NCBI GenBank assembly: GCA_951812855.1 | Contig: OX638337.1 | Coordinates: forward strand, 750,001 to 782,000 | DNA length: 32,000 bases | Reading direction: 5' to 3' | From: an uncultured Lentisphaeria bacterium | Lineage (GTDB): Bacteria > Verrucomicrobiota > Lentisphaeria > JABSQK01 > JAJFLO01 | In this document: positions 7,191 through 31,897 of the stretch, piece by piece | How positions within the stretch are numbered: the stretch's first letter is position 1 | How the letters are laid out: each line of letters starts with the position of its first letter | Notes under the pieces: model-generated | Seen by the model: the letters and a program-made list of their open reading frames with translations, nothing else | Told to the model about the DNA's origin: nothing | Database searches by the model: none | Translations under genes and position numbers: made by a program

Positions 7191-7897
7191 ATGTATACCC
7201 TTTCAGACAGCATAGGGTTTTACATGAAAGATATTGGAAACATTCCCCTGGTCAATACTCAAGAAGAAGTTGAGTTGGCGACTTCAATCCGCGATGGATC
7301 TGAAGAGGCTGGACTTAGGTTAATTATATCTAATTTGAGATTAGCAGTAAAGATTGCACATGATTTTAAGAGTCTGGGCTTGCCTCCGGAAGATTTAATT
7401 TATGAAGGAAATATCGGACTTATGAGAACCGTCGAAGAGTTCGATCCACAAAAAGGTGCCAAATTCAGCAACTGTACAGTTTGGTGGATAAAGCAAGCAA
7501 TGCGACGCACCCTTCTCGAAAAAGTAAGCCCGTCGGTATACCGGTTACTTCCGCTGGCAAAATTAATACGATAAAGTCAATCCGATCTCGGTTAACGAGT
7601 AAACCTGGCAGAGATCCAACAGACAAAGAAATCGCCTGCCAACCGGCTCTAAGTGTTCGGGTTTTTTCCAGATTAAAACGTGCTGATTTAAAACCGTTTC
7701 ATTACAAAATCCAATGACAGAGGATAAAGAAGGATGGTTCTCCGACGAAGACATTAGAAGATGTAAGCAAAACCATCGGCCGGACTCGTGAGCACGTTCG
7801 ACAGATTCAAAACAAGGCCCTTCAAAAAATGAAAAATCTGATCAATAGTGATTGTGCAGTTGAAAAACTAAATACTAAAAAGTCAATACTTAACTAA
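7191..7897 (+). pseudogene. sigma-70 family sigma factor, decayed (three frame changes, region 3.2-4.1 deleted)
   Basis: Region 2 (FSNCTVWWIKQAMRR) is in frame 0 up to ~7520. Region 3 (SKPVGIPVTSAGKINTIKSIRSRLTSKPGRDPTDKEIA) is in frame 2. TVSLQNPMTEDKEGWFSDEDI is in frame 1. Region 4.2 (TLEDVSKTIGRTREHVRQIQNKALQKMKN) is back in frame 2 and ends at TAA 7895-7897. Confidence 0.8.
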
Positions 7898-8650: not shown

Positions 8651-9175
8651 TTAATTGAATGATATGATCCCGGATAGAAACCAATGACTCTTCACAATTA
8701 CAGGAATATGATTTAGAAAATCAATTGTACTGCTGTCTGGTTCCAACCCAATAATATTGCCTGCTTCAATTTGGAAAATACTTATACCTTCCTTTTTGCA
8801 TTTCCCATTGAGCAACTGTGCCGTCAAGTCGCCAACCTGAATCAATGCCGCTAAATGAAGTCCCAATCCATTTTCGTCATTCCCGGTAATATCAGACAAA
8901 TGATGATTAAATGCAATACATTGATGAATTTCAATGGTCAAATTCCATGATGTTGCAATTAAACCTCCAACCCTTTCGTGAAATGAAGAAAAAAGACCCG
9001 ATAGAGAGTCTTTTGTTATTTCCTGATCATCATTTATCTTGTTTTGACATGAGACTGTCAGCTCTCTTAAAATTGCCAATTTCCCGATATCATGAAGCAG
9101 ACCGGCCATATAAGCATTATCTGGATTCGGATAATAACATTGACTCAGCCCGCATGTTGGAGCACCGATTGTAAT
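8651..9175 (-). pseudogene. HDOD-domain protein remnant (N-terminal ~90-100 aa of the domain missing)
   Basis: The ORF contains AGLLHDIGKLAIL plus the distal HDOD helices. The frame stays open upstream of the ATG at 9109 (ITIGAPTCGLSQCYYPNPDNAY) only as far as an in-frame TAA at ~9176-9178. Beyond that is AT-rich non-coding DNA. Confidence 0.6.
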
Positions 9176-9393
9176 TTAAGATTTTTGATCCTTTGTAGAA
9201 TTTATTGATGTTATTTTTCTTTTCCGGAATCAAATCACGTCTTTTTTTCATTATTTTTACACACTCCCCTTACCCCCAATCGGTTTGTATAATATGTTTT
9301 TATTTGAAATCTGTTATTTATAACACATTATATCTCGTTTTAATCGTAACATTTTTATTCTATGAGGTAGAAACGTTCTCTTAGTTATCATGG

Positions 9394-9597
9394 ATGTTTA
9401 TGTCAATTGTAATTCCAGTTGTTGAAAGGGTTTTTGCATCAAGAGATAAGAACGATTTAATGATTGGCCGCAGAAGAGTTTCTATATTTGATTTACACGA
9501 TGACGAGCTGGCACACTTTAATAAAAATACGGGAGAATTAGAAATTAGCCAATATGTTCGTAGCAAATTGGCAGAATTGAAGGAAGCCAGACTTTGA
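9394..9597 (+). CDS. small ribbon-helix-helix (CopG/MobC-like) protein, putative; real start may be the internal Met at 9460
   Basis: RRRVSIFDLHDDELAHFNKNTGELEISQYVRSKLAEL fits a beta-strand/helix/helix RHH pattern. No convincing SD precedes 9394. Confidence 0.4.
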   Translation: MFMSIVIPVVERVFASRDKNDLMIGRRRVSIFDLHDDELAHFNKNTGELEISQYVRSKLAELKEARL

Positions 9598-9814
9598 ATA
9601 TGGTGAAAAAATAACGGAAGACTCAAAAAAAAACTAAAACCTTTCTTGAGAACAAAAATATACTGTGAGAACAGATTTGTTTTATATAATGACGATTGGA
9701 TAACCACAGATGAACTCAAAAAAAAAAATTCAGTTAATGCCGGCCGAACAAAATCGTCTTGACGCTGAGCAGCAAGAGACTGAACAAAACCCATTAATAA
9801 GGAAGAAGAATCCG

Positions 9815-10042
9815 ATGATGATCAAGCAGCACTCTGGGATTGGTGATTTGCCGATTTCGAAGGAACTCTTAGATATATTAGCATGCCCTGCCTGTGATGA
9901 AAAGCCTCCGGTTACATTATCCGAAGACCTTCAGTTTCTCATATGTAGTAAATGTGCTAAAAAGTATCCTGTCAAAAATGGTATTCCAGTTATGTTGGTG
10001 GAGGAAGCCGTAGATGCTGTCCATACCCGGAGGATACTCTAG
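9815..10042 (+). CDS. Trm112/YcaR-family small zinc-ribbon protein (UPF0434)
   Basis: LLDILACPACDEKP...LICSKCAKKYPVKNGIPVMLVEEA. The track ORF starts at 9710, but the family is ~60-75 aa, so the ATG-ATG at 9815 is the likelier start. The stop TAG abuts the ATG of the next gene. Confidence 0.8.
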   Translation: MMIKQHSGIGDLPISKELLDILACPACDEKPPVTLSEDLQFLICSKCAKKYPVKNGIPVMLVEEAVDAVHTRRIL

Positions 10043-11955
10043 ATGTGCGGGATTGTCGGAGGATTTTGGAACAAGGTCCGGAAAGAAGAGATTGATGCCC
10101 GCCTGCGATCAAGCCTGACATCTCTCAGGCACCGCGGTCCGAACGACAGCGGTCATAAGGTCGTCCGTAATGCGGCACAGACAGTTGCACTTGGCCAAAC
10201 TCGCTTGTCTATCATCGATCTCAGCTCCGATGGACACCAACCCATGGTGAGTAACGATGGGTGCCTTATGCTGGTCTTCAATGGCGAAATTTACAACTAC
10301 AAGGAGCTGCGCAGCGAGCTTCGCACCAGGGGGCATACATTCCGTTCCGAGTCCGACACAGAGGTGCTTCTCGCAGCATACGCCGAGTGGGGAAGGGAGT
10401 GCCTGACGCGGTTGGTCGGCATGTTCGCCTTCGTCGTATACGACCGGTCGTCGGTCGTCGGTCGTCGGTCGTCGGTCGGCTGTTTTGTGCCCGTGATGCC
10501 TTTGGCATCAAGCCGTTTTTCTATGAATGGAACGATAACGGTTTTCTTTTTGCATCGGAGCAATCAGCACTGCGCGTATTGCGGAACAGGCCGTTTGAGC
10601 CCGATCTGCAACGCAGTTACGACTATCTGGTACACGGCGATTACGACAGTCAGGAACGCAGTTTTCTGAAAGGGGTGAAACATTTGCCTCCCGGCTCGTT
10701 TCTTGAAGTCGATGTAACCTCGAAAAATCGATCCAGGCCAACAACATGGTGGCGAGTGCCAACCGCGGAAACAAAACTCTCCTTTCCTGATGCAGCTGCA
10801 GCATTGCGGGAGCAATTCTTGTCCAGTATCAATTTCCACCTTCGCAGTGATGTTCCGGTTGGAATGGCTCTTTCCGGAGGGATCGATTCGTCGGCAATTG
10901 TTTGTGCTGTCCGACACCTGGCACCTGACATACCAATCCATACATTCAGTTATATCGCCGACGACAGTCGGCTTTCAGAGGAGAAATGGGTCGATCTGGT
11001 AAATGAAAAAGTCCGTGCCATACCCCATAAAGTGAGGGTGACCGGGGACGATTTGATGCGCGACCTGGATCGACTGATTGCCATTCAGGGAGAGCCATTC
11101 GGCAGTACGAGCATTTATGCGCAGCATCGTATTTATCAATTGGCAAAAGAGAATGGCATCACGGTGACTTTGGATGGTCAGGGTGCCGACGAGCTTCTCG
11201 CAGGCTATAGTGGATATCCTGGTCAGCGCCTCCTTAGCTTGTTTGAGAGTCGACGCTTCCTTGCCATGCATCGGTTCGCACGGAGTTGGGCTGCTTGGCC
11301 GAACAGGTCATACTGGCAGGCCTTCATGTACCTCGGGAAGGTTGTCTTTCCAGATTCGATCTATCGGTATGCTCGCAAGTCCCTGGGACGGGATTTTGAA
11401 CCGGCCTGGCTTAAGACAAACCTCCTGCGGGAGGCTGGCGTCGAGTTTCGCGAAGCACGAATGCCGTTTCGGCGTGATTACAGACAAAGGCGAGTGATCG
11501 AGCAACTCGCCCACAGCTTGCAGATTCGCGGGCTGCCACATCTCCTTCGGCAGGGTGATCGCAACTCGATGGCGTTTTCGATTGAAAGCCGCGTCCCCTT
11601 TCTGACCGCACAAATGGCTGAGCTTTTATTGTCATTGCCTGAGCATTACCTGATTGCAGAATCCGGAGAGACAAAAAGCGTATTCAGAGCGGCAATGCGC
11701 GGCATCGTGCCGGACGCAATCCTTAACCGTAGAGACAAGATTGGTCTGGCCACACCTGAGCGTGAGTGGTTCTTGCAGGGAGGTCAGGGGATGCGCAAGT
11801 GGTTTAGGGACGGGGACTCAATACCATTCATCAATCGCAATGAATTAGCGGCTGCATTCGATGCCATACTGGATGGCAAAGTGCCTTTCAGCTGGCAAGC
11901 GTGGCGGTGGGTAAACTACATTCGATGGTATGGGGCACAGGGCTTCAATGGTTAG
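10043..11955 (+). pseudogene. asparagine synthase (glutamine-hydrolysing), polysaccharide-cluster type, split by a frameshift inside a 7-nt repeat
   Basis: The N-terminal part is MCGIVGG...RLSIIDLS...FNGEIYNY...SDTEVLL...GMFAFVVYD (frame of 10043). It continues as LFCARDAFGIKPFFY...MALSGGIDSS... to 11955 in the frame of 10261. The switch lies at 10446-10480. Confidence 0.85.
10446..10480 (+). repeat. tandem heptanucleotide repeat: (GGTCGTC) x4 perfect plus GGTCGGC
   Basis: Counted base by base. The perfect units are 10446-52, 10453-59, 10460-66 and 10467-73, and the degenerate unit is 10474-80. Confidence 0.95.
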
Positions 11956-11956
11956 G

Positions 11957-12603
11957 ATGACCAACACATTGCACATATCTAATACGGACATTGAGTTCGA
12001 TAGTCGCATATGTAAGTAATTGAAGGTGCTCAGCGAGCTGTCCACATCTCGTACCTGGCACTGATGATGAAAGAAGCCGATTTGAGACCCCTGGTTGTCC
12101 ATATAGATGCCGGCTACACCGAGCTTGCCGTTCACAACATTGGGCAGATTGTAAGGCACTGCGGCTATGAGCTGGTTACTCATGTGATAGACCGGGAAGA
12201 GGTTCGCGACCTACAGCTTGCTTTCGTTCGCTCAGAAATTGCGAATCAGGACGTTGTGCAGGATCACGCTTTTTTTTGCGACCTTATATCATTTTGCTGT
12301 TGAAAATAATATCCAATACGTGATCAGTGGTCGAAACACGGCAACAGAATGTATTAAGACCCAAACATCGGAGCACTCCGCGATGGATGCAATTAACCTG
12401 CGTGCCATCTACAAGAAGTTTGGCAATATTCCACTCAAGCATTACAAAACCATTTCCTTTTTTCAATACTATTTCTATTATCCCTTCATCAAGAAGATGG
12501 CTACAGTCAAGTCTCTCAACTATACGCCCTATGATAAACCTGCCGAACCGGAAAGACTGAAACAGGAGATCGGCTACAAGGATTACGGTCAAAAACACGG
12601 CGG
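11957..12603 (+). pseudogene. N-acetyl sugar amidotransferase (WbpG-like PP-loop enzyme) remnant, copy A
   Basis: MTNTLHISNTDIEFDSRICK then a stop. Next comes VIEGAQRAVHISYLALMMKEADLRPLVVHIDAGY, a degenerate SGGxDS PP-loop. REEVRDLQLAF...QDHAFF is followed by a frameshift at T8 (12270-12277), then ATLYHFAVENNIQYVISGRNTATEC...YYPFIKK...GYKDYGQKHGGS. The 3' end is missing. Confidence 0.75.
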
Positions 12604-12864
12604 ATCCAGGAACTTGTTGAAGCAATGGCTCTGCTTGATAACACACGGTTGAATCTTGTTGGCAGATTCAATGATGAAGAATTCGAAGCACGCATCAGGT
12701 TGTCTGCAGGCTGGAGTAAGGTAAATGAACTTGGATTCGTTAAGCGTAATGATGTAGCAGACGTGCCTGGACGTTCGAGGGCGGGTATTGTCACCTATTA
12801 CCCGGTGCCCAATTACATGGAGGCTCAACCGAACAAGTTGTTTGAGTACATGAGTGCCGGATTG
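12604..12864 (+). pseudogene. glycosyltransferase family 1 (GT4-type) C-terminal fragment
   Basis: IQELVEAMALLDNTRLNLVGRF...VNELGFVKRNDVADV...RAGIVTYYPVPNYMEAQPNKLFEYMSAGL matches the GT1 C-terminal Rossmann/EX7E region. No N-terminal half is present. Confidence 0.65.
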
Positions 12865-13194
12865 CTTGATGGTCTGACGATTACGAAACCCCTTGGCTAC
12901 CTGGATACCATGATGCTGATGAAAAATGCCTCCGCTGTTGCGACCGATTCCGGTGGTATTCAGAAAGAAGCATATTTCCATCAGGTCCCCTGCATCACAC
13001 TACGCGATGAGACTGAATGGTCTGAACTTGTGGAACTTGGCTGGAACCGCCTTTGTTCGCCGTTACTGGGGGACGGCCAGATCGTAAATTGTGTTACCCA
13101 AAGCATTGGACGCCATGGTAAATCAGGCACTCCATATGGTGGAGGCGATGCTGCTGTCAAGATTATTGACCATCTGTTGAGTCGATTTAACTGA
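12865..13194 (+). pseudogene. UDP-N-acetylglucosamine 2-epimerase (WecB-like) C-terminal fragment, fused in frame to the GT1 fragment
   Basis: KPLGYLDTMMLMKNASAVATDSGGIQKEAYFHQVPCITLRDETEWSELVELGWNRL...YGGGDAAVKIIDHL is the conserved WecB C-terminus. The first ~250 aa are absent. Confidence 0.7.
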
Positions 13195-13214
13195 TGTTGT
13201 AATAGGGGTGGTTA

Positions 13215-13794
13215 TCCTGCAAACACTATCAACACAAACTCGGCGTGAGCTTCAAGCGATTGCCCTGCCGGGAAAGGTGCGAGCGGTTTACTTGATGCTG
13301 CACAGCCTGGGTTCATCCCGAAAACAAAGCGACGTCGCCCTGTACCCCCGGCGTCGGAACCCATTCAGGAGAATGCCTGCAAGATGATCACTCTGTGAGG
13401 TGCGAAGTGAAGCATGTCCTGACACTGTTTTTTTTGATGCCTGGCAATACGGATGGTTTATTACCCGTTCATTATCAGGATGCGGAGCCACCGTCCGCTG
13501 GAATGGGTCGATTACAACAAGGCCGATGTAAAGAAACTTCTGATGCAAGAATTGGGCTGGTGCGATTATGGTAACAAGCATTATGAATCTGCTTTCACCA
13601 AGTTTCTCCGGGCTTATTACCTGCCCGAGAAATTTGGCTATGACAAGCGGCTGGCTCATCTTTCAAGCCTTGTGGTTTCTGGCCAAATGACCAAGGCCGA
13701 AGTGCAAGCCGAGCTGCAATTGCTGATCTATGACCTGCAAGAGCTGAAAGAAGATCGCATCTACTGGATCAAAAAGATGGGCCTTACTCAGTAA
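13215..13794 (+). pseudogene. N-acetyl sugar amidotransferase remnant, copy B (diverged from copy A)
   Basis: The intact C-terminal ORF 13453-13794 reads YYPFIIRMRS...ELGWCDYGNKHYESAFTKFLRAYYLPEKFGYDKRLAHLSSLVVSGQMTKAEV. Upstream there is only weak multi-frame similarity (RRELQAIAL; GVGTHSGEC; KHVLTLFF), with a T8 run at ~13431-13438. Confidence 0.65.
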
Positions 13795-13941
13795 GAGTAT
13801 GATGAGGTGACGGCCGCAAAAGAGAAAGTTACACCCCCCCTATAAGTGGAGGCAGTGGCGTTTCTATTATCTTCTCCATGCATAGTTAATGGGTAAAAAG
13901 CTGACTTATTAGAAAAAAATTTAATTTTCTTACAATTTTGT

Positions 13942-13969
13942 TTGACATTGTTAAAAATTATGCTATTAA
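13942..13969 (+). promoter_or_regulatory. sigma-70-type promoter of the dcw operon (candidate)
   Basis: TTGACA (13942-13947), a 16-nt spacer, then the extended -10 TGCTATTAA (13961-13969), ~60 nt upstream of the mraZ start. Confidence 0.5.
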
Positions 13970-13982
13970 GCAGTGTTGCGTG

Positions 13983-13998
13983 TAGGGGTAAATAGGGG
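13983..13998 (+). promoter_or_regulatory. two TAGGGG direct repeats 10 bp apart (candidate MraZ operator)
   Basis: TAGGGG occurs at 13983-13988 and 13993-13998, between the putative -10 and the mraZ SD (GGAGGA, 14015-14020). Confidence 0.3.
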
Positions 13999-14026
13999 AA
14001 TTTAGTTTAACTTTGGAGGATATAGT

Positions 14027-14479
14027 TTGAATATTAGTTTTTTAGGTTGGTTTACACATTCAATTGATTCACAACGCAGAGTTGCAATTCCGAGAGAGTG
14101 GCGATTCAAAAGTGATAGCCAGGACTCAGTATTTTACTTAATGCCCGGGAGGGATGAGAGTATCCAAATCTTACCTCAGGAGCTATTCGAAGCTGAAATT
14201 TTGGCAAAGATTAGCAAAGTGCCCGTTACTAATGCTGCAAGGATGCGTGCAATCGCACAGATCGGTGCAAAAACAAGCAAGAGTCAATGCGATAAACAGG
14301 GACGAATTACACTGACCCCATACCTCATGGAATATTCGGGATTACAGGATCAGACAGTTTTAATCGGTGGTTTCTCCAGTATTCAGGCCATGTCCCCTGA
14401 GCGTTGGGAAAAAGCAGAAATGAGTTATGATGATATGCTCGATCAAATTGAAAGAATTCAAGAGAGTAGAGAAATTTAA
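14027..14479 (+). CDS. mraZ: transcriptional regulator MraZ
   Basis: 150-aa ORF with a TTG start 6 nt after GGAGGA. It has two SpoVT/AbrB-like halves (DSQRRVAIPREWRF; DKQGRITLTPYLMEY) and heads the dcw cluster. Confidence 0.9.
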   Translation: MNISFLGWFTHSIDSQRRVAIPREWRFKSDSQDSVFYLMPGRDESIQILPQELFEAEILAKISKVPVTNAARMRAIAQIGAKTSKSQCDKQGRITLTPYLMEYSGLQDQTVLIGGFSSIQAMSPERWEKAEMSYDDMLDQIERIQESREI

Positions 14480-17716: not shown

Positions 17717-19203
17717 AACGTATTAAAACACTTAGAGATTACCTTAGTTCCTGCAATGGTCTTGAAGATGATCTTGAAGGCAATCCTGATATCCCGATTA
17801 CACACCTGACAAATGACTCAAGAAATGTAGAACCGGGGTCCCTATATGTTGCAATCCGGGGATCTACCCTGAATGGACAGGAATTTATAGGTCAGGCAAT
17901 ATCTCGCGGTGCGTCAGCAATAGCCTATGCTTCTGATAAAAAACTATCTTTGCAGATACCCTCCTTTCGTGTAAAAAATGATTATTCAGCTTTTGCCAGA
18001 ATGGCTGAATTCCACCTTGATTATCCAAGCAAAAATCTAAAACTCATTGGCGTTACCGGTACGAATGGGAAAACAACCACGACAACACTGATAAGACATT
18101 TATTAAATGATACACACTATAATGTTGGTTTGATAGGTACGATTAGCTATCAATACAACGATATATCAATTAAGGCATCCCGCACAACTCCGCCGGCACT
18201 GGAGTTGCAAAAATTGATCAGAACCATGAAAGATGCTGGTATAAATCTGATTATTATGGAAGTATCCAGCCATGCACTGAATCAATACCGCCTCGGTTCA
18301 ATGAAATTTGACATGGCAGTATTTACTAATTTATCAGAGGAACATTTAGACTGTCACAAAACAATGGACGGCTATTTCAGTGTTAAAAAGAAACTATTCA
18401 TTGATCACATTAAAAAAAATGGAAAGACAGTGATTAATATTGATGATAGTTATGGTAAGAAGTTATGTGGTCAACTAATTGGTACTGAGCAAATAACATA
18501 CGGATATTCCACGGCGTCACAAAATAGAATCATATCGATTAAATCGACACTGAAAGACAGTATAATAAAAATAATAACACCAAACGGGAATATATTCTCA
18601 ACGTGTTCACTGATTGGAAAATATAACAGTTATAATATCGCTGCTGCTGTATTGGTTGCATTGAATTTAAAACTGTCAACAGATCATGTCATCGATAGAT
18701 TGAGTCAATTTTATGAAGTTTCAGGACGATTACAAAGATTAACAACAAGCGATAAAATCAATATTTTTATTGACTACGCTCATACAGAAGATGCATTAGA
18801 AAATGTATTGCAAACACTTAAACGACTTTGCAGAAATAATAAATTAATCGTAGTTTTTGGATGCGGTGGTAACAGGGATAAAACTAAACGTGCAAAAATG
18901 GGTAAGGTTGTTTCAGAATATGCCGATAAAATCTATATTACCAATGATAATCCCCGCAACGAAGATCCCCACCAAATTATTAGCCAAATAGTTGGAGGGT
19001 TACCATCAAAAACTAACTGTGAAATCATTGCAGATCGTAAAAATGCCATTGAAAGTGCCATCAAAAATGCAACCCTGAATGATACAATAATCATTGCCGG
19101 TAAGGGTCACGAAGAGTATCAGGAGTTTGGCAATAAAAAAATCCATTTTAGCGATACTGAAGTTGCCCTAAATGCAGTGAAAAGTTTTGGATTATCAGGT
19201 TAG
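17701..19203 (+). CDS. murE: UDP-N-acetylmuramoyl-L-alanyl-D-glutamate--2,6-diaminopimelate ligase; start codon unresolved
   Basis: The track ORF starts at TTG 17950. The same frame is open back to 17698 and encodes genuine MurE N-terminal sequence (ITHLTNDSRNVEPGSLYVAIRGSTLNGQEFI). Also present are GVTGTNGKTTT and DNPR. No ATG/GTG/TTG lies in frame upstream; the candidate start is ATT at 17701. Confidence 0.85.
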   Translation: MSNKVERIKTLRDYLSSCNGLEDDLEGNPDIPITHLTNDSRNVEPGSLYVAIRGSTLNGQEFIGQAISRGASAIAYASDKKLSLQIPSFRVKNDYSAFARMAEFHLDYPSKNLKLIGVTGTNGKTTTTTLIRHLLNDTHYNVGLIGTISYQYNDISIKASRTTPPALELQKLIRTMKDAGINLIIMEVSSHALNQYRLGSMKFDMAVFTNLSEEHLDCHKTMDGYFSVKKKLFIDHIKKNGKTVINIDDSYGKKLCGQLIGTEQITYGYSTASQNRIISIKSTLKDSIIKIITPNGNIFSTCSLIGKYNSYNIAAAVLVALNLKLSTDHVIDRLSQFYEVSGRLQRLTTSDKINIFIDYAHTEDALENVLQTLKRLCRNNKLIVVFGCGGNRDKTKRAKMGKVVSEYADKIYITNDNPRNEDPHQIISQIVGGLPSKTNCEIIADRKNAIESAIKNATLNDTIIIAGKGHEEYQEFGNKKIHFSDTEVALNAVKSFGLSG

Positions 19204-19207
19204 ATAA

Positions 19208-19771
19208 TTATTCCGATTTAACAATTCCAATAACACCACATCCGATGCGTGCCCCTGCAGCACCGGCAGGCTGACTCTCCAGATCATCTGTCCCTGCATG
19301 AATAATTATACCCCGACCAAGCACTGGATTTTTCTTGCCGGCAATTGTGATATTGTCTACCATTTTTTCATAACTGGCATTGCCATTCTCATCTGCTGCA
19401 AGATTTCCTAAATCTCCAGCATGTCTTACATCGTCATCCGGTCCGGCATGACTGTGACCTCCCGGATTATAATGCCCGCCTGCACTTTTCCCATCGCCCG
19501 AACGACAGTCGCCAAATTGATGAATATGAAAACCATGCTTGCCATTGGGCGTTAATCCAGATATAGCCGCAGTAACTTTAACCTTATTTCCCGCTCTCTG
19601 GAAACGGACTGTTCCACTAACATTATTTCCCGCGGTAGAATTAATTTCCGCTACTGCACTTTTTACTCCAAAAAATCCTCGTTTATCTGATTTCTTGTTC
19701 CCTTCTGCCTGTACTATCATTGTAATCGTTAATAATGACACTATAAAAAAAGAAAACTTCATGTGACGCAT
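19208..19771 (-). CDS. sodC: periplasmic Cu,Zn superoxide dismutase
   Basis: Signal peptide followed by GFHIHQFGDC, GGHYNP, HAGDLGN and RIGCGVIG. The second ATG (MKFSFF, 19762) may be the true start. Confidence 0.93.
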   Translation of the reverse strand: MRHMKFSFFIVSLLTITMIVQAEGNKKSDKRGFFGVKSAVAEINSTAGNNVSGTVRFQRAGNKVKVTAAISGLTPNGKHGFHIHQFGDCRSGDGKSAGGHYNPGGHSHAGPDDDVRHAGDLGNLAADENGNASYEKMVDNITIAGKKNPVLGRGIIIHAGTDDLESQPAGAAGARIGCGVIGIVKSE

Positions 19772-19945
19772 TTTTTACCTCCCTATGATTGGTTGTAATA
19801 AAACGAAGCAGCTGCCATGTCTTTATTTCTATTCAAATACCTATAATGATTACCTAAGATTTTTAAAAGTCAAATATGAATATAAACCTAAAAGTGTATA
19901 ATCATAATTCCAATAATTATATTGAAAAATTAATAATCTGCCTGT

Positions 19946-20821
19946 TTGAAAATAATGTGTGACACCAAATCATTTGAGAAACTCTATCCATTTAAGTCGC
20001 ATTACTTAGATATCAATGGATTAAACTATCATTATTTGGATGAAGGAAACGGTCCTGTTATCGTCATGCTTCACGGAAATCCAACCTGGTCATTTTACTA
20101 TCGGAATTTAGTCGTAGCCCTTCGCAAAAATTATCGCGTAATCGTGCCGGATCATATCGGTTGCGGCTTTTCAGACAAACCACAGGATTACCCCTATCAA
20201 CTTAATAATCATGTTGATAATCTAAAAACGTTGTTAACGCATCTGAATATAGAAAAACTAACTATGTTTGTACACGATTGGGGTGGCCCAATTGGACTGG
20301 GTTATGCTGTGGACAATCCTGAAAAGATTGAAAAGATGGTTGTTTTCAATTCATCACCATCTTTAACAAAAAAATTTCCATTTTTAATTCTCCTGTGCCG
20401 AATTCCTTTATTAGGAAATTTAATGGTTCGAGGTATGAACTATTTTGCTGTCGCAGCAACGTATCTGGCATGCAAAAAAAGAGAAAAAATGACACCGGAA
20501 GTCAAAGCAGGATACCTTAAACCCTATGATAGTTATGAGAATCGTATCGCAACCCTGCGTTTTGTCGAGGATATCCCGTTCACGAAAAAACATCCGACCT
20601 GGAGTACAGCTGAATCTATCCAGTCTAAACTATCTGTGATCGAGAATAAACCCATGCTCATCTGTTGGGGCATGCAAGATTTTTGTTTTACAGAGCATTT
20701 TCTCCATCTTTTTCAAGAACGATTCTCAAACGCGACCGTTCATAAATTTGATGATGCCGGACATTACATCGTTGAAGATGCTATCGACCAAATATTGCCG
20801 TTGGTAAAAGATTTTTTGTAA
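19946..20821 (+). CDS. alpha/beta-fold hydrolase, haloalkane-dehalogenase-like subfamily
   Basis: VMLHGNPTWSFYYRNL, the nucleophile elbow HDWGGPIGLGYA and a C-terminal DDAGHYIVED. The ATG at 19955 is a likelier start than the TTG at 19946. Confidence 0.85.
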   Translation: MKIMCDTKSFEKLYPFKSHYLDINGLNYHYLDEGNGPVIVMLHGNPTWSFYYRNLVVALRKNYRVIVPDHIGCGFSDKPQDYPYQLNNHVDNLKTLLTHLNIEKLTMFVHDWGGPIGLGYAVDNPEKIEKMVVFNSSPSLTKKFPFLILLCRIPLLGNLMVRGMNYFAVAATYLACKKREKMTPEVKAGYLKPYDSYENRIATLRFVEDIPFTKKHPTWSTAESIQSKLSVIENKPMLICWGMQDFCFTEHFLHLFQERFSNATVHKFDDAGHYIVEDAIDQILPLVKDFL

Positions 20822-24844: not shown

Positions 24845-24918
24845 GGCGTGGTAGCCAAGTGGTTAGGCAGGGGTCTGCAAAACCTCGGACACCGGTTCGA
24901 ATCCGGTCCACGCCTCCA
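24845..24918 (+). tRNA. tRNA-Cys (anticodon GCA), CCA encoded
   Basis: Manual cloverleaf. Acceptor stem GGCGTGG/CCACGCC, D arm GCC-AAGTGGTTA-GGC, anticodon stem GGGGT/ACCTC with loop CTGCAAA, T arm ACCGG-TTCGAAT-CCGGT, discriminator T, then CCA. Confidence 0.9.
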
Positions 24919-25871: not shown

Positions 25872-26261
25872 ATGAAATTATTATCAGTATTAAGCATACC
25901 ATGTTTACTGGTGTCAGCATTTTTCAGCAATGCCGCGGGTTCCAAATTTACGGCGAAACCGAACGAGGCGGTATTCCAGGTGCATGGTGTTGTCTGTTCG
26001 TTCTGCTCTGCAGGACTCCGGAAGAAACTTTCAAAACTGCCGTTTGTGGATCATTCCAGGTATAAAAAAGGCATTCATGTCACCATCAAAAACCAACGCA
26101 TCACCATGGCCGTAAAGCCTGATGCAACTGTTGATTTAAAGGCTGTTTATAAATCAATTAAATCCGGAGGTTATGATCTTATAAAAGCGGTGGTTGCAGA
26201 CGGGAAGGGTGTATCAACGTATTACGATAAAAAAGGAAATCTATGTATCGACTGTTCCTGA
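25872..26261 (+). CDS. secreted heavy-metal-associated (HMA, MerP-like) domain protein
   Basis: SD GGAGA lies 6 nt upstream. The signal peptide is MKLLSVLSIPCLLVSAFFSNAAG. The HMA fold carries GVVCSFCS (a CxxC) and the protein ends in a second CxxC (LCIDCS). Confidence 0.75.
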   Translation: MKLLSVLSIPCLLVSAFFSNAAGSKFTAKPNEAVFQVHGVVCSFCSAGLRKKLSKLPFVDHSRYKKGIHVTIKNQRITMAVKPDATVDLKAVYKSIKSGGYDLIKAVVADGKGVSTYYDKKGNLCIDCS

Positions 26262-27136
26262 TCGTTGTTTGGTTCTTCCTGACACTTTCCTTTTCCTATG
26301 CTCACCAACCCGTTATGGATATGGCACCGCGCTGGGAAGACGGATACGGTTTTCAATTTCGTCATGAGTATTACGGTTCAAACAATTTGATGGATAGTGA
26401 TTCACGAATTTCCAATCCCTTAGGTCTGGAACGGTTCGTGAATAAAACATGGTTAGAAGGTGTCTATACGTTTAGCCGATCAAACCGTATAACATTTAAA
26501 TTACCTTATGTTCAGCAGCGACGCATTAAAAACATTGCCGGCGTCGGCGTTAAACAGGAAACCAATGGGATTGGCGATTTGGTATTGGCAGCACCCTTTA
26601 AATTCTATAAAAACCTTCGTGCAAATACGCGTAATTTCGGGATAACACCATCAGTTCGTATTCCAACAGGACGATCAGGTGGAGATTTCCCAATTAGCGA
26701 TGGAAGTTGGGATTTTGGATTGAGCATATCCTACAGCTCAGAGGGTTATCCATTTGGCAAGGATAACCACATTAAAATCTACCAACTTTACGATCTTTTC
26801 TATTGGCAGAATACTGAAGGGAAACATGATATGCACGACGGAAATGAATTGGGGCTGGATATAAATATCGGTTTACATCCGTATCACAATGATCAGATTA
26901 ATGCCGGTATGTTTATCATGTGGGATATCACAGCAAGATATAACCGTACACCGAATTCAGCAACATTAACGACAGCCAGCGGCGGAAAACGCGTTCAGAC
27001 CGGTCCGGTTCTGGTGTTATATAAGGACAACATAATGTTTCGTAGTGAATACAAATTTCTGGCGTACGAGAATACCCGTAACGTATCTGTATCACGCGGC
27101 CACAAACTTAATATCGGTATTGGATTTACGTTTTAA
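26243..27136 (+). CDS. outer-membrane beta-barrel protein (MetA-pathway/transporter-like family, tentative)
   Basis: Signal peptide ending SYA|HQP. Alternating amphipathic strands, a GIGDL motif, and the C-terminal ...NIGIGFTF with terminal Phe typical of OMPs. The start overlaps the HMA gene by 19 nt. Confidence 0.65.
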   Translation: MYRLFLIVVWFFLTLSFSYAHQPVMDMAPRWEDGYGFQFRHEYYGSNNLMDSDSRISNPLGLERFVNKTWLEGVYTFSRSNRITFKLPYVQQRRIKNIAGVGVKQETNGIGDLVLAAPFKFYKNLRANTRNFGITPSVRIPTGRSGGDFPISDGSWDFGLSISYSSEGYPFGKDNHIKIYQLYDLFYWQNTEGKHDMHDGNELGLDINIGLHPYHNDQINAGMFIMWDITARYNRTPNSATLTTASGGKRVQTGPVLVLYKDNIMFRSEYKFLAYENTRNVSVSRGHKLNIGIGFTF

Positions 27137-27199: not shown

Positions 27200-28180
27200 C
27201 TATGGTTTCTTGTTTCTATTTTTCTGGATAGCAAGTGTATTACGTTCCCAGAATACACCGTCTTTATAGCCTTGGATTGATGTGTCGTTATCCGCAGTTT
27301 CCAATCGCTTTAAGGAAAGCATTGCATACTCTTCATCTAACTCAATTGCATAGAAGTTGCGATTTAATTTTTTTGCGACAACAGCGGTTGTTCCCGAACC
27401 GGAAAACGGATCGAATACGACATCACCGGAGCTGGAACTGGCGAGAATTAATTTTGCCAGGAGTTTTTCCGGTTTTTGCGTTGGATGATCCGTATTTTCA
27501 GGCATACTCCAAAACGGAATACTGATGTCTGTCCACAAGTTACTCGGATGCGTTAGTCTAAAATTACCCTCTGAATTCTCTTCCCAATCCTTGGGTTTAC
27601 CGTTTTTACGATACGGTGCAATTACTTTCCGCTTAGGCTTGATATCCTCAACATTGAATGTGTAATCATTACCTTTTGTGGTAAACCAGATATCTTCATG
27701 AGAATTTTTGAAATTCTTCTTTGCTCCCCGCCCCTTTTCACGCTCCCAGGTTATTCGGTTGCGAACGACCAAATAATCACTGATAACCTGATATATCGAA
27801 ATCGATGTTTTCCAATCCCCACAGGTATAAACCGAACCGGTATCTTTTAATTTTGGGACCAATAATTTAAACCACGATCGAAACCAGTCCGTGTACTTTG
27901 CTTCTGTCGTTTTATTGAAGCTGCTATTATTAAACCGCTTACTCAGATTATACGGCGGGTCTAAAAAGATCAAATCAACAGAAGAATCCGGGATATACTC
28001 GATTGAGTCATAAAAATCCCCGTGAATAATGGTATTTAATGGTACAGCTGATTTCAATTTACTGGCAAGCAATAATTCTTTTCGGAATTTTTCCCTTTCA
28101 GCATCATTAAGTGTTATTGTCTGATTCCGACCGGATCGTTTTTTTTCTTTCATGGTGTTTTTGCTTTTTGAGTTATGCAA
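27200..28180 (-). CDS. beta-class DNA methyltransferase, DPPY motif (N6-adenine type probable)
   Basis: Motif IV (DLIFLDPPYN) precedes motif I (VFDPFSGSGTTAVVA), with HPTQKP between them, giving CcrM/HinfI-like order. The track start is TTG 28180; the ATG at 28153 (MKEKKRSG) is more likely. Confidence 0.88.
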   Translation of the reverse strand: MHNSKSKNTMKEKKRSGRNQTITLNDAEREKFRKELLLASKLKSAVPLNTIIHGDFYDSIEYIPDSSVDLIFLDPPYNLSKRFNNSSFNKTTEAKYTDWFRSWFKLLVPKLKDTGSVYTCGDWKTSISIYQVISDYLVVRNRITWEREKGRGAKKNFKNSHEDIWFTTKGNDYTFNVEDIKPKRKVIAPYRKNGKPKDWEENSEGNFRLTHPSNLWTDISIPFWSMPENTDHPTQKPEKLLAKLILASSSSGDVVFDPFSGSGTTAVVAKKLNRNFYAIELDEEYAMLSLKRLETADNDTSIQGYKDGVFWERNTLAIQKNRNKKP

Positions 28181-30322: not shown

Positions 30323-31897
30323 TTATTGGTTGAACTTCGTTATCTCACGATCAAGTACCTGTTGAATATTTTCGGGAATTGTTGATCTGAAATACTGAAG
30401 CATTCTGACTTTTAAATGTTGAAATTCTGGAAGCCCCCGGCGATTTATATCTGCTTCATTCGCCATTTTTGACATATAGTTTTTGTATACTTTTCGTGCT
30501 AACATATCAAACCCATTTGCCCGTTCAATTTCGTGAAGACATATCGATTGATATGCTTTCAATATTAATGCCTGTATAGTTGACTGGGCATTTTCCAATG
30601 ACATGTTATTAATATCCTTAGATAACTCATCAATGACAAATGCGGACAACGCTTTATTAAATCGACTTTTTTCTGAGATCTCCGGCATATCACGCAGTGA
30701 CTCTAAATACTGCTCTGCCTTTTCTTTCAATCCAAACGTATAAAGAATAATGACTGCATCAATCATGAAATTTTCATAACCGGACAGGATATAATTACCG
30801 GCACCATGCCGTTTCATTGTATCTGAATAAGCGTTGCGAACAGCATCACAAAGTGTGACATTAGGCATTGTATTAACTGTATTTGATCCATCAAAATAGA
30901 GTAGTTTACCAGAATTAAACGCAGTCTTAAGACTTTGGAATATCATACGCTCACATTTGATATGAAGATCATTCTCTGCCAGTTTTAAACCCTGATGAGC
31001 CCAAAATAATGAATGTGATTCCGGTAAACGAAAATCTAAATAACCGTATTTTTCCAATACCGCTGAAACCAGAGCCGGGTCAAGCCGGTACTCGTCCCGG
31101 AGCCAGGTTGCCCGAAAATAATTGTCTGAAATTTTAAGAATATTCAATTCTCTTAATTTCAATGAAACAGAATCACTAAACTTCCCGTCCCTGCGAAAAT
31201 GAAGTGCTAATTGATCCAGCGTCAATTTTTCTTTAAATAGTATCTCTTCAAACGCAGACCGATTATTTTTTAACGCCAGTAAAAATTGATCAGAAGAGAG
31301 GGGGGCTAACGACAATTCATTCCAGAAATATTCATCTCCATCACCAATAATACGATGCATTTCTTTAGCTAAAGCAACCTTGTAGTACCGATTTGCATCA
31401 TCAAGTACCTGACCAATTTTATGTTGGTACAACCAGCCTAATTCCCAATATAATAAGGGATCGGATAAATTATAAGTCAACGCATTGTCCCTGAGGAGTT
31501 TTATCCCGTGATTTACCCATCGCCACCGATCTTCCGGTGCCTTACATACAACGGAAACATTATAGGCCATATTCCAGGCCAAAAATGAAGCCGCCCCTGT
31601 AAATCGCGGCTGAAGATTTACGATCCACTCTGAAAGCTGCACCATTTCAAAAAAATTTTCGCTATTTTTCTTGTTCTGCAATCTTAAGAAAAGAATATCT
31701 GCCAGCAATCCCCGAAATCCGCCCAGCATAATTGTAGTAACGACCATCATCGGAGGTGCATTTTCCAGGGGTTCAACTGTCGTTAATTTATTTTGAGTCC
31801 GGATGACATTCATTTTGGAGTGAATAGTAGAAATCAATCCCGGGAGTATCATCATAAAAATACATAAAATACAGAAATATTGTTTTGTCATCTTCAT
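30323..31897 (-). CDS. membrane-anchored protein of unknown function
   Basis: 524-aa ORF with an N-terminal hydrophobic segment (YFCILCIFMMILPGLIS) and a second one (MMVVTTIMLGGFRGLLADILFL). The remainder is helical-repeat-like. I recognise no family. Confidence 0.6.
   Translation of the reverse strand: MKMTKQYFCILCIFMMILPGLISTIHSKMNVIRTQNKLTTVEPLENAPPMMVVTTIMLGGFRGLLADILFLRLQNKKNSENFFEMVQLSEWIVNLQPRFTGAASFLAWNMAYNVSVVCKAPEDRWRWVNHGIKLLRDNALTYNLSDPLLYWELGWLYQHKIGQVLDDANRYYKVALAKEMHRIIGDGDEYFWNELSLAPLSSDQFLLALKNNRSAFEEILFKEKLTLDQLALHFRRDGKFSDSVSLKLRELNILKISDNYFRATWLRDEYRLDPALVSAVLEKYGYLDFRLPESHSLFWAHQGLKLAENDLHIKCERMIFQSLKTAFNSGKLLYFDGSNTVNTMPNVTLCDAVRNAYSDTMKRHGAGNYILSGYENFMIDAVIILYTFGLKEKAEQYLESLRDMPEISEKSRFNKALSAFVIDELSKDINNMSLENAQSTIQALILKAYQSICLHEIERANGFDMLARKVYKNYMSKMANEADINRRGLPEFQHLKVRMLQYFRSTIPENIQQVLDREITKFNQ

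Follow-up and report, generated by a model that had tools for sequence, protein, structure and literature searches.

A compositionally foreign island beside the dcw operon of an uncultured Verrucomicrobium as the probable relic of an acquired surface-polysaccharide cluster

Results

Gene remnants in the island

We analysed a 32,000-nucleotide stretch of the genome of an uncultured Verrucomicrobium (contig OX638337.1, positions 750,001 to 782,000 of the forward strand; hereafter the window), in which an island of ~3.8 kb, rich in guanine plus cytosine (GC) and holding the remnants of surface-polysaccharide genes, separates two native genes. The host is AT-rich and has a small genome of ~1.9 Mb. 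The left border is a native Trm112-like gene encoding 110 amino acids (aa) (9710..10042, + strand; Pfam Trm112p, E=5e-8); the rise in GC takes in its last ~5-25 codons. The right border is mraZ (14027..14479, + strand; Pfam MraZ), with which the native dcw operon of cell-division and cell-wall genes begins. The content of the island was mapped with Pfam and NCBIfam profiles and with tblastn searches using full-length reference proteins. An earlier first-pass annotation of this DNA had listed an AsnB-like gene, two WbpG-like amidotransferases, a GT1 glycosyltransferase and WecB, none of them intact. All of these were recovered, the number of intact genes in the island was zero, and the mapping added the N-terminal remnant of a GT4 glycosyltransferase and a heptanucleotide tandem repeat.

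The island begins with an asnB-like glutamine amidotransferase gene (10043..11955, + strand; GATase_6/7 plus Asn_synthase domains), which is full length but carries one frameshift in a repeat tract. As previously noted, its ATG (10043) directly abuts the Trm112 stop codon TAG (10040-10042); a GGAGGA motif lies 8 nt before the ATG. The frameshift site is a (CGGTCGT)n heptanucleotide tandem repeat (10445..10478, + strand) of four perfect units followed by CGGTCGG. Tandem Repeats Finder (TRF) reported it as 4.9 copies with a 100% match, the top-scoring tandem repeat in the window. It sits at codon 135 of 632, and its 7-bp unit is not divisible by 3. The tract is the sole lesion of the gene, whose open reading frame (ORF) is otherwise uninterrupted in the two strains described below. 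Removing two units gives an uninterrupted ORF of 632 aa, and adding one unit gives an ORF of 639 aa. The reconstructed protein keeps the N-terminal Cys (MCGI...), the glutaminase motifs and the PP-loop SGGIDSS, and it aligns to the hydroxyamidotransferase PDB 7YLZ, its best structural relative, and to PDB 1CT9. Hence the domains and motifs of the asparagine synthetase B type (TIGR01536 / PF13522 + PF00733) are present, but the continuous ORF is not.

The right half of the island is made of truncated pieces. First comes the N-terminal remnant of a GT4 glycosyltransferase (11957..12052, + strand; ~32 codons), identified by tblastx and blastn to two donor-type loci described below (L035, 7666-7761, and L040) and by frame translations. 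Its ORF (11957-12019) holds 20 codons and ends in a TAA nonsense codon at 12017-12019, its homology runs to ~12052, and a deletion junction lies at ~12045. It is followed by fragment 1 of a WbuX/WbpG-type N-acetyl sugar amidotransferase (12025..12598, + strand), which covers reference residues ~80-276 by tblastn and positions 81-154 and 147-269 of TIGR03573. This fragment begins just past the PP-loop position (profile position 81 onward); neither that loop nor the tetracysteine motif of the N-terminus is present, and a T8 run (12270-12277) is the site of its one frameshift. Its best database relative is 66% identical, and its DNA is 68% identical to a low-GC locus (L075, 35% GC).

An internal piece of a GT1-family glycosyltransferase (12580..12864, + strand; reference residues ~200-295 by tblastn with the L053, L045 and L058 references; Pfam Glyco_trans_1_4 positions 33-101) is joined in frame to the C-terminal third of WecB, the UDP-GlcNAc 2-epimerase (12805..13194, + strand; reference residues ~245-370 by tblastn), which retains its natural stop. 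Together they form a chimeric 189-aa ORF (12625-13194). The WecB piece matches positions 233-346 of 347 in Pfam Epimerase_2 and 256-363 of 366 in TIGR00236, the full protein having ~366 residues. Beyond it lies a GC-rich spacer (13195..13414; GC 0.43-0.59), for which neither strand gave a Pfam or NCBIfam match at E<=1 (13195-13450 and antisense ORFs searched) and tblastx gave no match to the compared loci. The last remnant is fragment 2 of a WbuX/WbpG-type amidotransferase (13415..13794, + strand), a C-terminal third with a natural stop and a frameshift near 13450. It was identified by tblastn and frame translations and covers reference residues ~230-358 and TIGR03573 positions 227-336 of 344.

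Both WbuX fragments lack the tetracysteine Zn motif and the PP-loop SGGxDS, which are the defining features of the N-acetyl sugar amidotransferase (NASAT) family (PMC10607449), and neither copy can therefore be active. We considered whether the two fragments are halves of one gene and rejected this, as they overlap at profile positions 227-269 with differing sequences and clusters with two paralogues exist. Fragment 2 is, judging from this overlap, a paralogue of fragment 1 and not its continuation. No flippase, polymerase or initiating transferase was found among the island remnants with Pfam, NCBIfam or tblastn, so that the island holds no functional O-antigen or exopolysaccharide (EPS) cluster.

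The lesions are few. The ~1,200 aligned codons hold only ~4 point-type lesions, namely the repeat frameshift, one nonsense codon and two further frameshifts, and the fragments retain a coding-like codon-position structure. The tblastn map shows at least four abrupt junctions, where a gene breaks off in mid-course and runs straight into the central or final part of a different one. Because point lesions are few, coding-like structure is kept and the junctions are abrupt, the cluster appears to have been destroyed mainly by a few large deletions.

Composition and borders

GC in 500-bp windows across 10001-13500 was 0.45-0.57, against a mean of 0.384 (sd 0.033, max 0.454) for the rest of the window, which corresponds to z = 2.0-5.7. 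A two-change-point likelihood fit placed the borders at 9996 and 13860, with GC of 0.508 inside and 0.362 outside (log-likelihood ratio 86); for the left change point, all positions from 9966 to 10026 lie within 2 log-likelihood units. The ~3.8-kb GC-rich island of the first-pass annotation, with a rise at 10005-10043 and a fall at ~13860, is thus borne out. In tetranucleotide usage each 2-kb flank window correlated with the host flanks at 0.84-0.95, the asnB part at 0.06 and the right half at 0.46. The GC at third codon positions (GC3) was 0.575 in the asnB-like gene; host genes nearby had 0.29-0.37, and Trm112 at the border had 0.43. By segment, GC was 0.54 in asnB and 0.42-0.48 in WbuX fragment 1. 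The sliding-window GC and tetranucleotide profiles, which had been proposed as a check, therefore show a non-uniform composition with a foreign signature, and the island is compositionally foreign to the host.

Dedicated searches agreed with the earlier statement that no integrase, transposase, tRNA or clear flanking repeat accompanies the island. There was no tRNA in or near it, the sole tRNA being a tRNA-Cys at 24845, and no Rfam family matched within it. The island and its borders gave no signal for mobility genes (integrase or transposase), and no meaningful repeats were found at the borders.

At the left border, the fitted change in GC falls 15-75 nt ahead of the asnB start codon. After a conserved EEA the Trm112 tail has 11 residues, compared with 3-8 in the closest homologues and a range of 3-19 in the family, and no alignment to the window was obtained for the donor-type DNA that precedes asnB. 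That the C-terminal tail of Trm112 is derived from the island, as had been suggested, is plausible. Separately, the window Trm112 ORF has an N-terminal extension of ~45 residues that is seen in no homologue. In two relatives (L042, 7103-8219, and L043, 7064-8213) Trm112 shares an overlap with the end of the gene before it, which encodes ~310 aa and is missing in the window (9110-9840).

At the right border, a junction zone (13795..13905) contains the GC drop at 13860 and the start of homology, from ~13905, to the region upstream of mraZ in the closest relative with genomic context, a ‘Verrucomicrobia bacterium’ metagenome-assembled genome (MAG; L001). RsmH and FtsI are 80% and 84% identical to those of this MAG, and mraZ has 78% aa identity and is colinear with it. 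Colinearity of the MAG with the window holds from ~13905 onward; ahead of mraZ the MAG has different genes, no rise in GC and no island. It is the sole relative with context, it is distant, and its upstream synteny is broken in any case. The Trm112 homologues in L042 and L043 have downstream neighbours unrelated to the window genes, and gene order on the left side is not conserved. Since gene order around neither Trm112 nor mraZ is conserved in the available relatives, asking whether Trm112 is directly followed by mraZ elsewhere, as had been proposed, was uninformative.

Presence of the island in a sister genome

The C-terminal ORF of the asnB-like gene was found 100% identical on a second contig, ena:ERZ18545485:ptg000035c (hereafter the sister genome, L034), which is 1,941,460 bp long and has a hifiasm-style circular name (ending in ‘c’). 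Such a name suggests an assembly from high-fidelity (HiFi) reads, which would span the whole 3.8 kb. Exact-match look-ups with Trm112, RsmH, the 564-aa ORF and P0244 of the window returned nothing, and the sister genome was reached through P0008 and P0121. Over 21 kb the window and the sister genome differ by 57 single-nucleotide polymorphisms (SNPs) and four indels, giving 99.6% identity. The island recurs in the sister genome, fragment for fragment and junction for junction, and within it the two genomes differ by six SNPs and one indel, the latter in the repeat tract.

The first-pass annotation had offered two explanations, a foreign cluster caught in decay or a chimeric assembly join. The compositional borders are indeed abrupt, as a chimeric join or a contaminant would predict. 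However, host-type sequence lies on both sides of the island on one contig, and an independently assembled genome of a distinct strain carries identical junctions on a 1.94-Mb, apparently circular contig whose reads, if HiFi, would cross the island entirely. Because the two joins recur in two strain-level assemblies, a chimeric join is not credible and can be taken as refuted. As judged by these assemblies, the island is truly present in the genome and is no misassembly. The shared junctions also place all the deletions before the split of the two strains. Homopolymer sequencing error was considered as a cause of the frameshifts and rejected for the key lesion, which is a 7-mer repeat with a length difference of 35 bp between the assemblies; on the T8 run (12270-12277) the two assemblies agree.

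Host genes showed synonymous and non-synonymous differences between the strains of pS = 0.0069 and pN = 0.0007. The six SNPs in the 3.8-kb island correspond to 1.6/kb, compared with 5.7-9.9 SNPs/kb in adjacent native non-coding and pseudogene DNA. On either side of it, the first SNPs are met at 9988 and 14050. The low density extends to the right half, which cannot be functional and has four SNPs in 1.9 kb (P=0.003). The remaining two island SNPs are synonymous changes in asnB, both G-to-A in the window strain.

The SNP density is uneven along the whole compared region (622-21940). It is 0-3/kb at synonymous sites in the purF-like gene, pyrG, ftsI, sodC, a hydrolase gene, rplM and rpsI, and several host genes pooled give 1.8/kb at synonymous sites; dcd, Trm112, mraZ and ftsL show 10-30 synonymous SNPs/kb. 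Candidate explanations are recombination imports in the flanks or a recent spread of the island. Between the strains mraZ has four non-synonymous and two synonymous changes. With L001 as the reference for polarity, the window strain carries the derived state, AT-to-GC, at three SNPs (14050-14205); at a fourth (14238), left unpolarised, the window has C. This pattern in mraZ may reflect relaxed selection or a small imported patch. The other strain indels are of 6 bp (7844), 2 bp (8799) and 15 bp (20820), the last at the 3' end of an alpha/beta-hydrolase gene (19946-20821).

The heptanucleotide repeat in the asnB-like gene

The sister genome has nine perfect units of the repeat where the window has four, which accounts for the 35-bp length difference. 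Frame arithmetic, checked on both alleles, restores the ORF at n=2, 5, 8 or 11 units, and n=8 or 11 would open the ORF of the sister genome. The n=4 and n=9 alleles are both out of frame, in different frames, so that full-length asnB-like enzyme would not be made from either known allele. No full-length allele of this species was found among ~15 billion database proteins, the best full-length match being 82% identical. A metagenome scan with the reconstructed AsnB returned relatives at <=68% identity only, with no further host strains and no more repeat alleles.

The closest homologues read D-RSRGR-I at the repeat site, where the n=2 state of the window gene would read D-RSSVVGR-L. Because these homologues have no repeat at the site, the tract appears to be an invention specific to this lineage. 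In an AlphaFold model of an 82%-identical homologue (P0001; mean pLDDT (predicted local distance difference test) score 85.6) the site forms the 4-residue turn of a beta-hairpin between strands 125-133 and 138-143.

On the window branch, compared with three donor-type orthologues, the asnB-like gene has non-synonymous and synonymous divergences of dN ~0.08 and dS 0.77-0.96, with a ratio (omega) of ~0.1. The changes specific to the window comprise 121 GC-to-AT and 23 AT-to-GC substitutions, and 76 of the former are at third codon positions. Since omega is ~0.1 on its own branch, purifying selection appears to have acted on the gene during most of the time since it branched off, all the while as it drifted AT-ward. 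This drift could have taken place in the present host or in an intermediate of moderate GC. The late-stage decay that had been proposed for the whole island thus holds for the right half, with its deletion-truncated fragments, but not for the asnB-like gene, which is full length, has kept its motifs and a low omega, and is broken only by slippage of the 7-bp repeat.

An alternative reading is that the asnB-like gene is alive and phase-variable. The tract would be a heptanucleotide contingency switch that turns the gene ON whenever the perfect units number two more than a multiple of three, and it would toggle an orphan, acquired amidotransferase that modifies a surface polysaccharide produced from other loci of the genome, the rest of the island being dead. 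The position of a unit not divisible by 3 inside an ORF that is otherwise open in both strains is consistent with this, as is a difference of five units between 99.6%-identical genomes at the only indel in the island; each known allele is one unit from an ON state. The low long-term omega, the recent changes (two synonymous, none non-synonymous), the retained N-terminal Cys, PP-loop and other motifs, and the GGAGGA motif ahead of an ATG abutting the Trm112 stop all point the same way. According to the AlphaFold model the tract would extend a 4-residue hairpin turn, a plausibly tolerant site. A precedent exists in neuO with its (AAGACTC)n tract, which is OFF in 66% of sequenced genomes (PMC13001214), and two OFF alleles out of two are for this reason not evidence against a switch.

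On the other hand, no ON allele is seen in the two genomes (a weak point with n=2) and no full-length allele of this species in the protein databases, and all the pathway partners in the island are destroyed. The non-functional fragments are also low in SNPs, so that the signal in asnB is marginal against the island rate, and repeat length would drift in a pseudogene too. Overall we hold phase variation of a living gene to be unlikely, though a serious contender. That a de novo heptanucleotide repeat has become a working on/off switch in the lone survivor of a dead cluster, making it a contingency gene for surface variation, we regard as doubtful. Were it so, the low SNP density of the island would partly reflect selection on asnB or recent spread between strains.

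Relatives of the island genes

Full-length relatives of the reconstructed AsnB, with 74-82% identity, lie on metagenome contigs; the closest is P0001, with 82% aa identity. Its named matches are from Proteobacteria (Mesorhizobium, Rhizobiaceae, Sphingopyxis, Cupriavidus and Pseudomonas) and are 59-67% identical. The search for a donor that the first-pass annotation had called for therefore succeeded in part, in that relatives in donor-type clusters were found but the named matches are only this distant. A plasmid search gave short matches only, at 67-80% identity.

At the DNA level asnB is 74-78% identical to donor-type loci (L035-L040; 60-64% GC). The homology starts exactly at the asnB ATG and ends ~70-100 nt (~32 codons) into the next gene, the GT4 glycosyltransferase. 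These loci are intact clusters with WbpB-, WbpD- and WbpE-like genes, a flippase, an AsnB-like gene, GT4, a second AsnB-like gene, more glycosyltransferases, an initiating transferase and Wzz. The right half of the island has no counterpart in them. Of further clusters with an AsnB-like gene, L059 also has WecB, GT1 and two WbuX paralogues, and L075 has the series GT4, WbuY, WbuZ and WbuX. In both, WbuX stands beside WbuY and WbuZ (HisH- and HisF-like), WbpB, WbpD and WbpE. The island genes thus match the kit of intact clusters, which comprises asnB-like, GT4, WbuX with WbuY/WbuZ, the enzymes for diacetamido sugars WbpB, WbpD and WbpE, GT1 and WecB, and by this gene content the ancestral cluster would have been a normal member of a mosaic type of polysaccharide cluster.

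Two of the compared loci have peculiarities of their own. In L039 (ena:ERZ25039485:contig_22268) many genes are split into 2-3 adjacent ORFs (PGI, a GFO/IDH oxidoreductase, Wzz and GATase), which suggests an error-prone long-read assembly; rates based on L039 may be slightly inflated. In the low-GC metagenome cluster L059 the first WbuX paralogue (13643-14431) is split by a frameshift into a 152-aa ORF and a second frame, and the second paralogue (18682-19791) is intact.

These relationships bear on two further explanations. The cluster might be native or ancestral to the lineage and atypical in composition for gene-specific reasons, since polysaccharide clusters often deviate from the GC of their genome. 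Such clusters usually deviate downward, however, and not by +15 points as here. The high GC3 and a tetranucleotide correlation of 0.06, the absence of the cluster from the closest relative with context and the close similarity of asnB to contigs with 60-64% GC also speak against a native cluster, which we consider very improbable.

Alternatively, the fragments were never functional in this host. They would have come in already broken or as a patchwork, at one time or on several occasions, for example when the cell took up environmental DNA and recombined it illegitimately, and would now be awaiting deletion. The lack of mobility genes, tRNA and border repeats would fit this, as would the differing GC of the segments, whose nearest relatives lie on contigs of 60% and 35% GC, and the fact that no transporter, polymerase or initiating transferase is left. 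Against it, the island opens exactly at a gene start and closes just past a natural stop, the order of gene types is that of real clusters, and the asnB-to-GT4 junction is preserved as in the donor clusters. The asnB-like gene is moreover complete, with an omega of ~0.1 and strong AT-ward drift at third positions on its own branch. We therefore judge an arrival in broken form to be improbable.

Neighbouring genes

Native DNA to the left of the island contains further gene remnants. A sigma-70 gene (7191-7717, + strand) is reduced to regions 1.2 and 2 (a 127-aa ORF) and has no region 4; the start of region 3 is found in another frame (7481-7717; sub-threshold Pfam E=7e-4), and the gene looks like a pseudogene of native composition. 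Of an HDOD gene (8651-9109, - strand) only profile positions 123-195 of 196 are left, and the 2-bp strain indel at 8799 falls inside it. This gene is probably a pseudogene as well. The 600 bp before Trm112 are empty of genes. From these remnants, the island appears to lie in a pseudogene-rich patch of a small AT-rich genome.

Elsewhere in the window there is a DNA methyltransferase gene (N6_N4_Mtase; 27200-28180, - strand), for which the scanned ORFs offer no obvious restriction partner. Two sizeable ORFs of 297 and 524 aa (26243-27136, + strand, and 30323-31897, - strand) have no Pfam match.

Discussion

Collectively our data make it fairly likely that the island is a relic, decaying in place, of a horizontally acquired Wbp/Wbu-type surface-polysaccharide (O-antigen or EPS) cluster, with the asnB-like gene as its latest casualty and the repeat now drifting in length. 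The foreign composition, the presence in two strains and the match to the gene kit of intact clusters all support the foreign cluster in decay that the first-pass annotation had put forward.

In the course that we propose, the cluster would once have been functional in this lineage or in a moderately AT-biased predecessor. After it had become dispensable, at least four internal deletions and a few point lesions would have reduced it to 3.8 kb, leaving the GT4 N-terminus, the middle of the first WbuX gene, the middle of GT1, the C-terminus of WecB and the C-terminus of the second WbuX gene abutting one another. The asnB-like gene would have outlasted the rest. A CGGTCGT repeat would then have arisen in the beta-hairpin turn of its glutaminase domain and slipped-strand mispairing would have altered its length; the gene would have been inactivated recently, and the repeat of the resulting pseudogene would now drift. 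Because the native DNA just to the left also decays, as the sigma-70 and HDOD genes indicate, the island would be part of general reductive evolution and not a special event at the dcw promoter.

Several observations weigh against this reading. The comparison with relatives that lack the island relies on a single distant genome. The AT-ward bias of asnB may stem from a donor of moderate GC instead of from this host. The relatives of one half of the island differ strongly in GC from those of the other (60% vs 35%), which would make the ancestral cluster itself a mosaic or imply more than one acquisition. The island is also poor in SNPs compared with adjacent neutral native DNA, which simple neutral decay does not predict. 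Most directly, with two synonymous differences and no non-synonymous ones between the strains, asnB falls short of the ~10 non-synonymous changes expected at the host synonymous rate (P=5e-5), and these differences fit a gene still under selection better than a dead gene. At the island's own rate, however, ~3 non-synonymous changes would be expected where none is seen (P ~0.05), and since the non-functional fragments are SNP-poor too the lack of such changes in asnB is only marginal.

The relic that we favour can be set beside known systems. One is the cryptic O-antigen cluster of Yersinia pestis (Skurnik et al. 2000, cited in PMC4491175), an example of those that became pseudogenised in bacteria restricted to a host or specialised recently. 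This cluster reportedly keeps all its genes with a few frameshifts. There as here, a dispensable surface-polysaccharide cluster would have been inactivated in place and can be recognised by its homology to intact clusters. Here, in contrast, most of the cluster is deleted, 3.8 kb of fragments remain, these are compositionally foreign, and the host is an uncultured Verrucomicrobium.

For the repeat, the nearest parallel is neuO of E. coli K1, a polysaccharide-modifying enzyme gene switched by (AAGACTC)n in its 5' coding region (PMC13001214). In both cases a 7-bp unit lies in the coding region of an acquired polysaccharide-modification gene, the frame is open only at every third copy number, and copy number varies between close strains. 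The neuO tract, however, lies at the extreme 5' end and ranges over 3-53 units, ON alleles of it are on record and its switching has been measured (PMC13001214), whereas the tract in asnB is at codon 135 in a folded domain, has been seen with four and nine units only, both OFF, and has dead partner genes. The lipopolysaccharide (LPS) genes of Haemophilus influenzae are simple-sequence-repeat contingency loci that vary by intragenic slipped-strand mispairing (PMC2651432). They resemble the asnB-like gene in having an intragenic repeat, in this mechanism and in belonging to an LPS-modifying type of gene, but they mostly have tetranucleotide repeats, are experimentally validated and occur in a pathogen with many such loci.

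Among the enzymes, Pseudomonas aeruginosa O5 WbpG and E. coli O145 WbuX belong to the NASAT family and act in the Wbp/Wbu acetamidino and diacetamido sugar pathways (PMC10607449). Like them, both island fragments match TIGR03573; unlike them, the fragments have lost the motifs that define the family. The asnB-like protein shares with class II amidotransferases and AsnB (PDB 1CT9) the two-domain architecture, the N-terminal Cys and the PP-loop, but it belongs to a clade of ~630 aa found inside polysaccharide clusters and is frameshifted here. To our knowledge, phase variation by simple sequence repeats is not known from this phylum (Verrucomicrobia).

We therefore place the island, as a further case, among the known polysaccharide clusters that were acquired horizontally and became pseudogenes, and the feature that deserves follow-up is the strain-variable heptanucleotide tract in asnB. 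The island provides a worked example of how a foreign polysaccharide cluster in a shrinking genome may be dismantled, by a few large deletions and not by slow point erosion. It also shows that abrupt GC islands in metagenome genomes assembled from long reads need not mean misassembly. Gene calls in the present region, for example a 458- or 564-aa ‘asparagine synthase’ or a 189-aa ‘epimerase’, are artefacts of pseudogene fragments. If the repeat were a true switch, it would represent the birth of a contingency locus within an acquired gene and would extend repeat-driven phase variation to an uncultured Verrucomicrobium.

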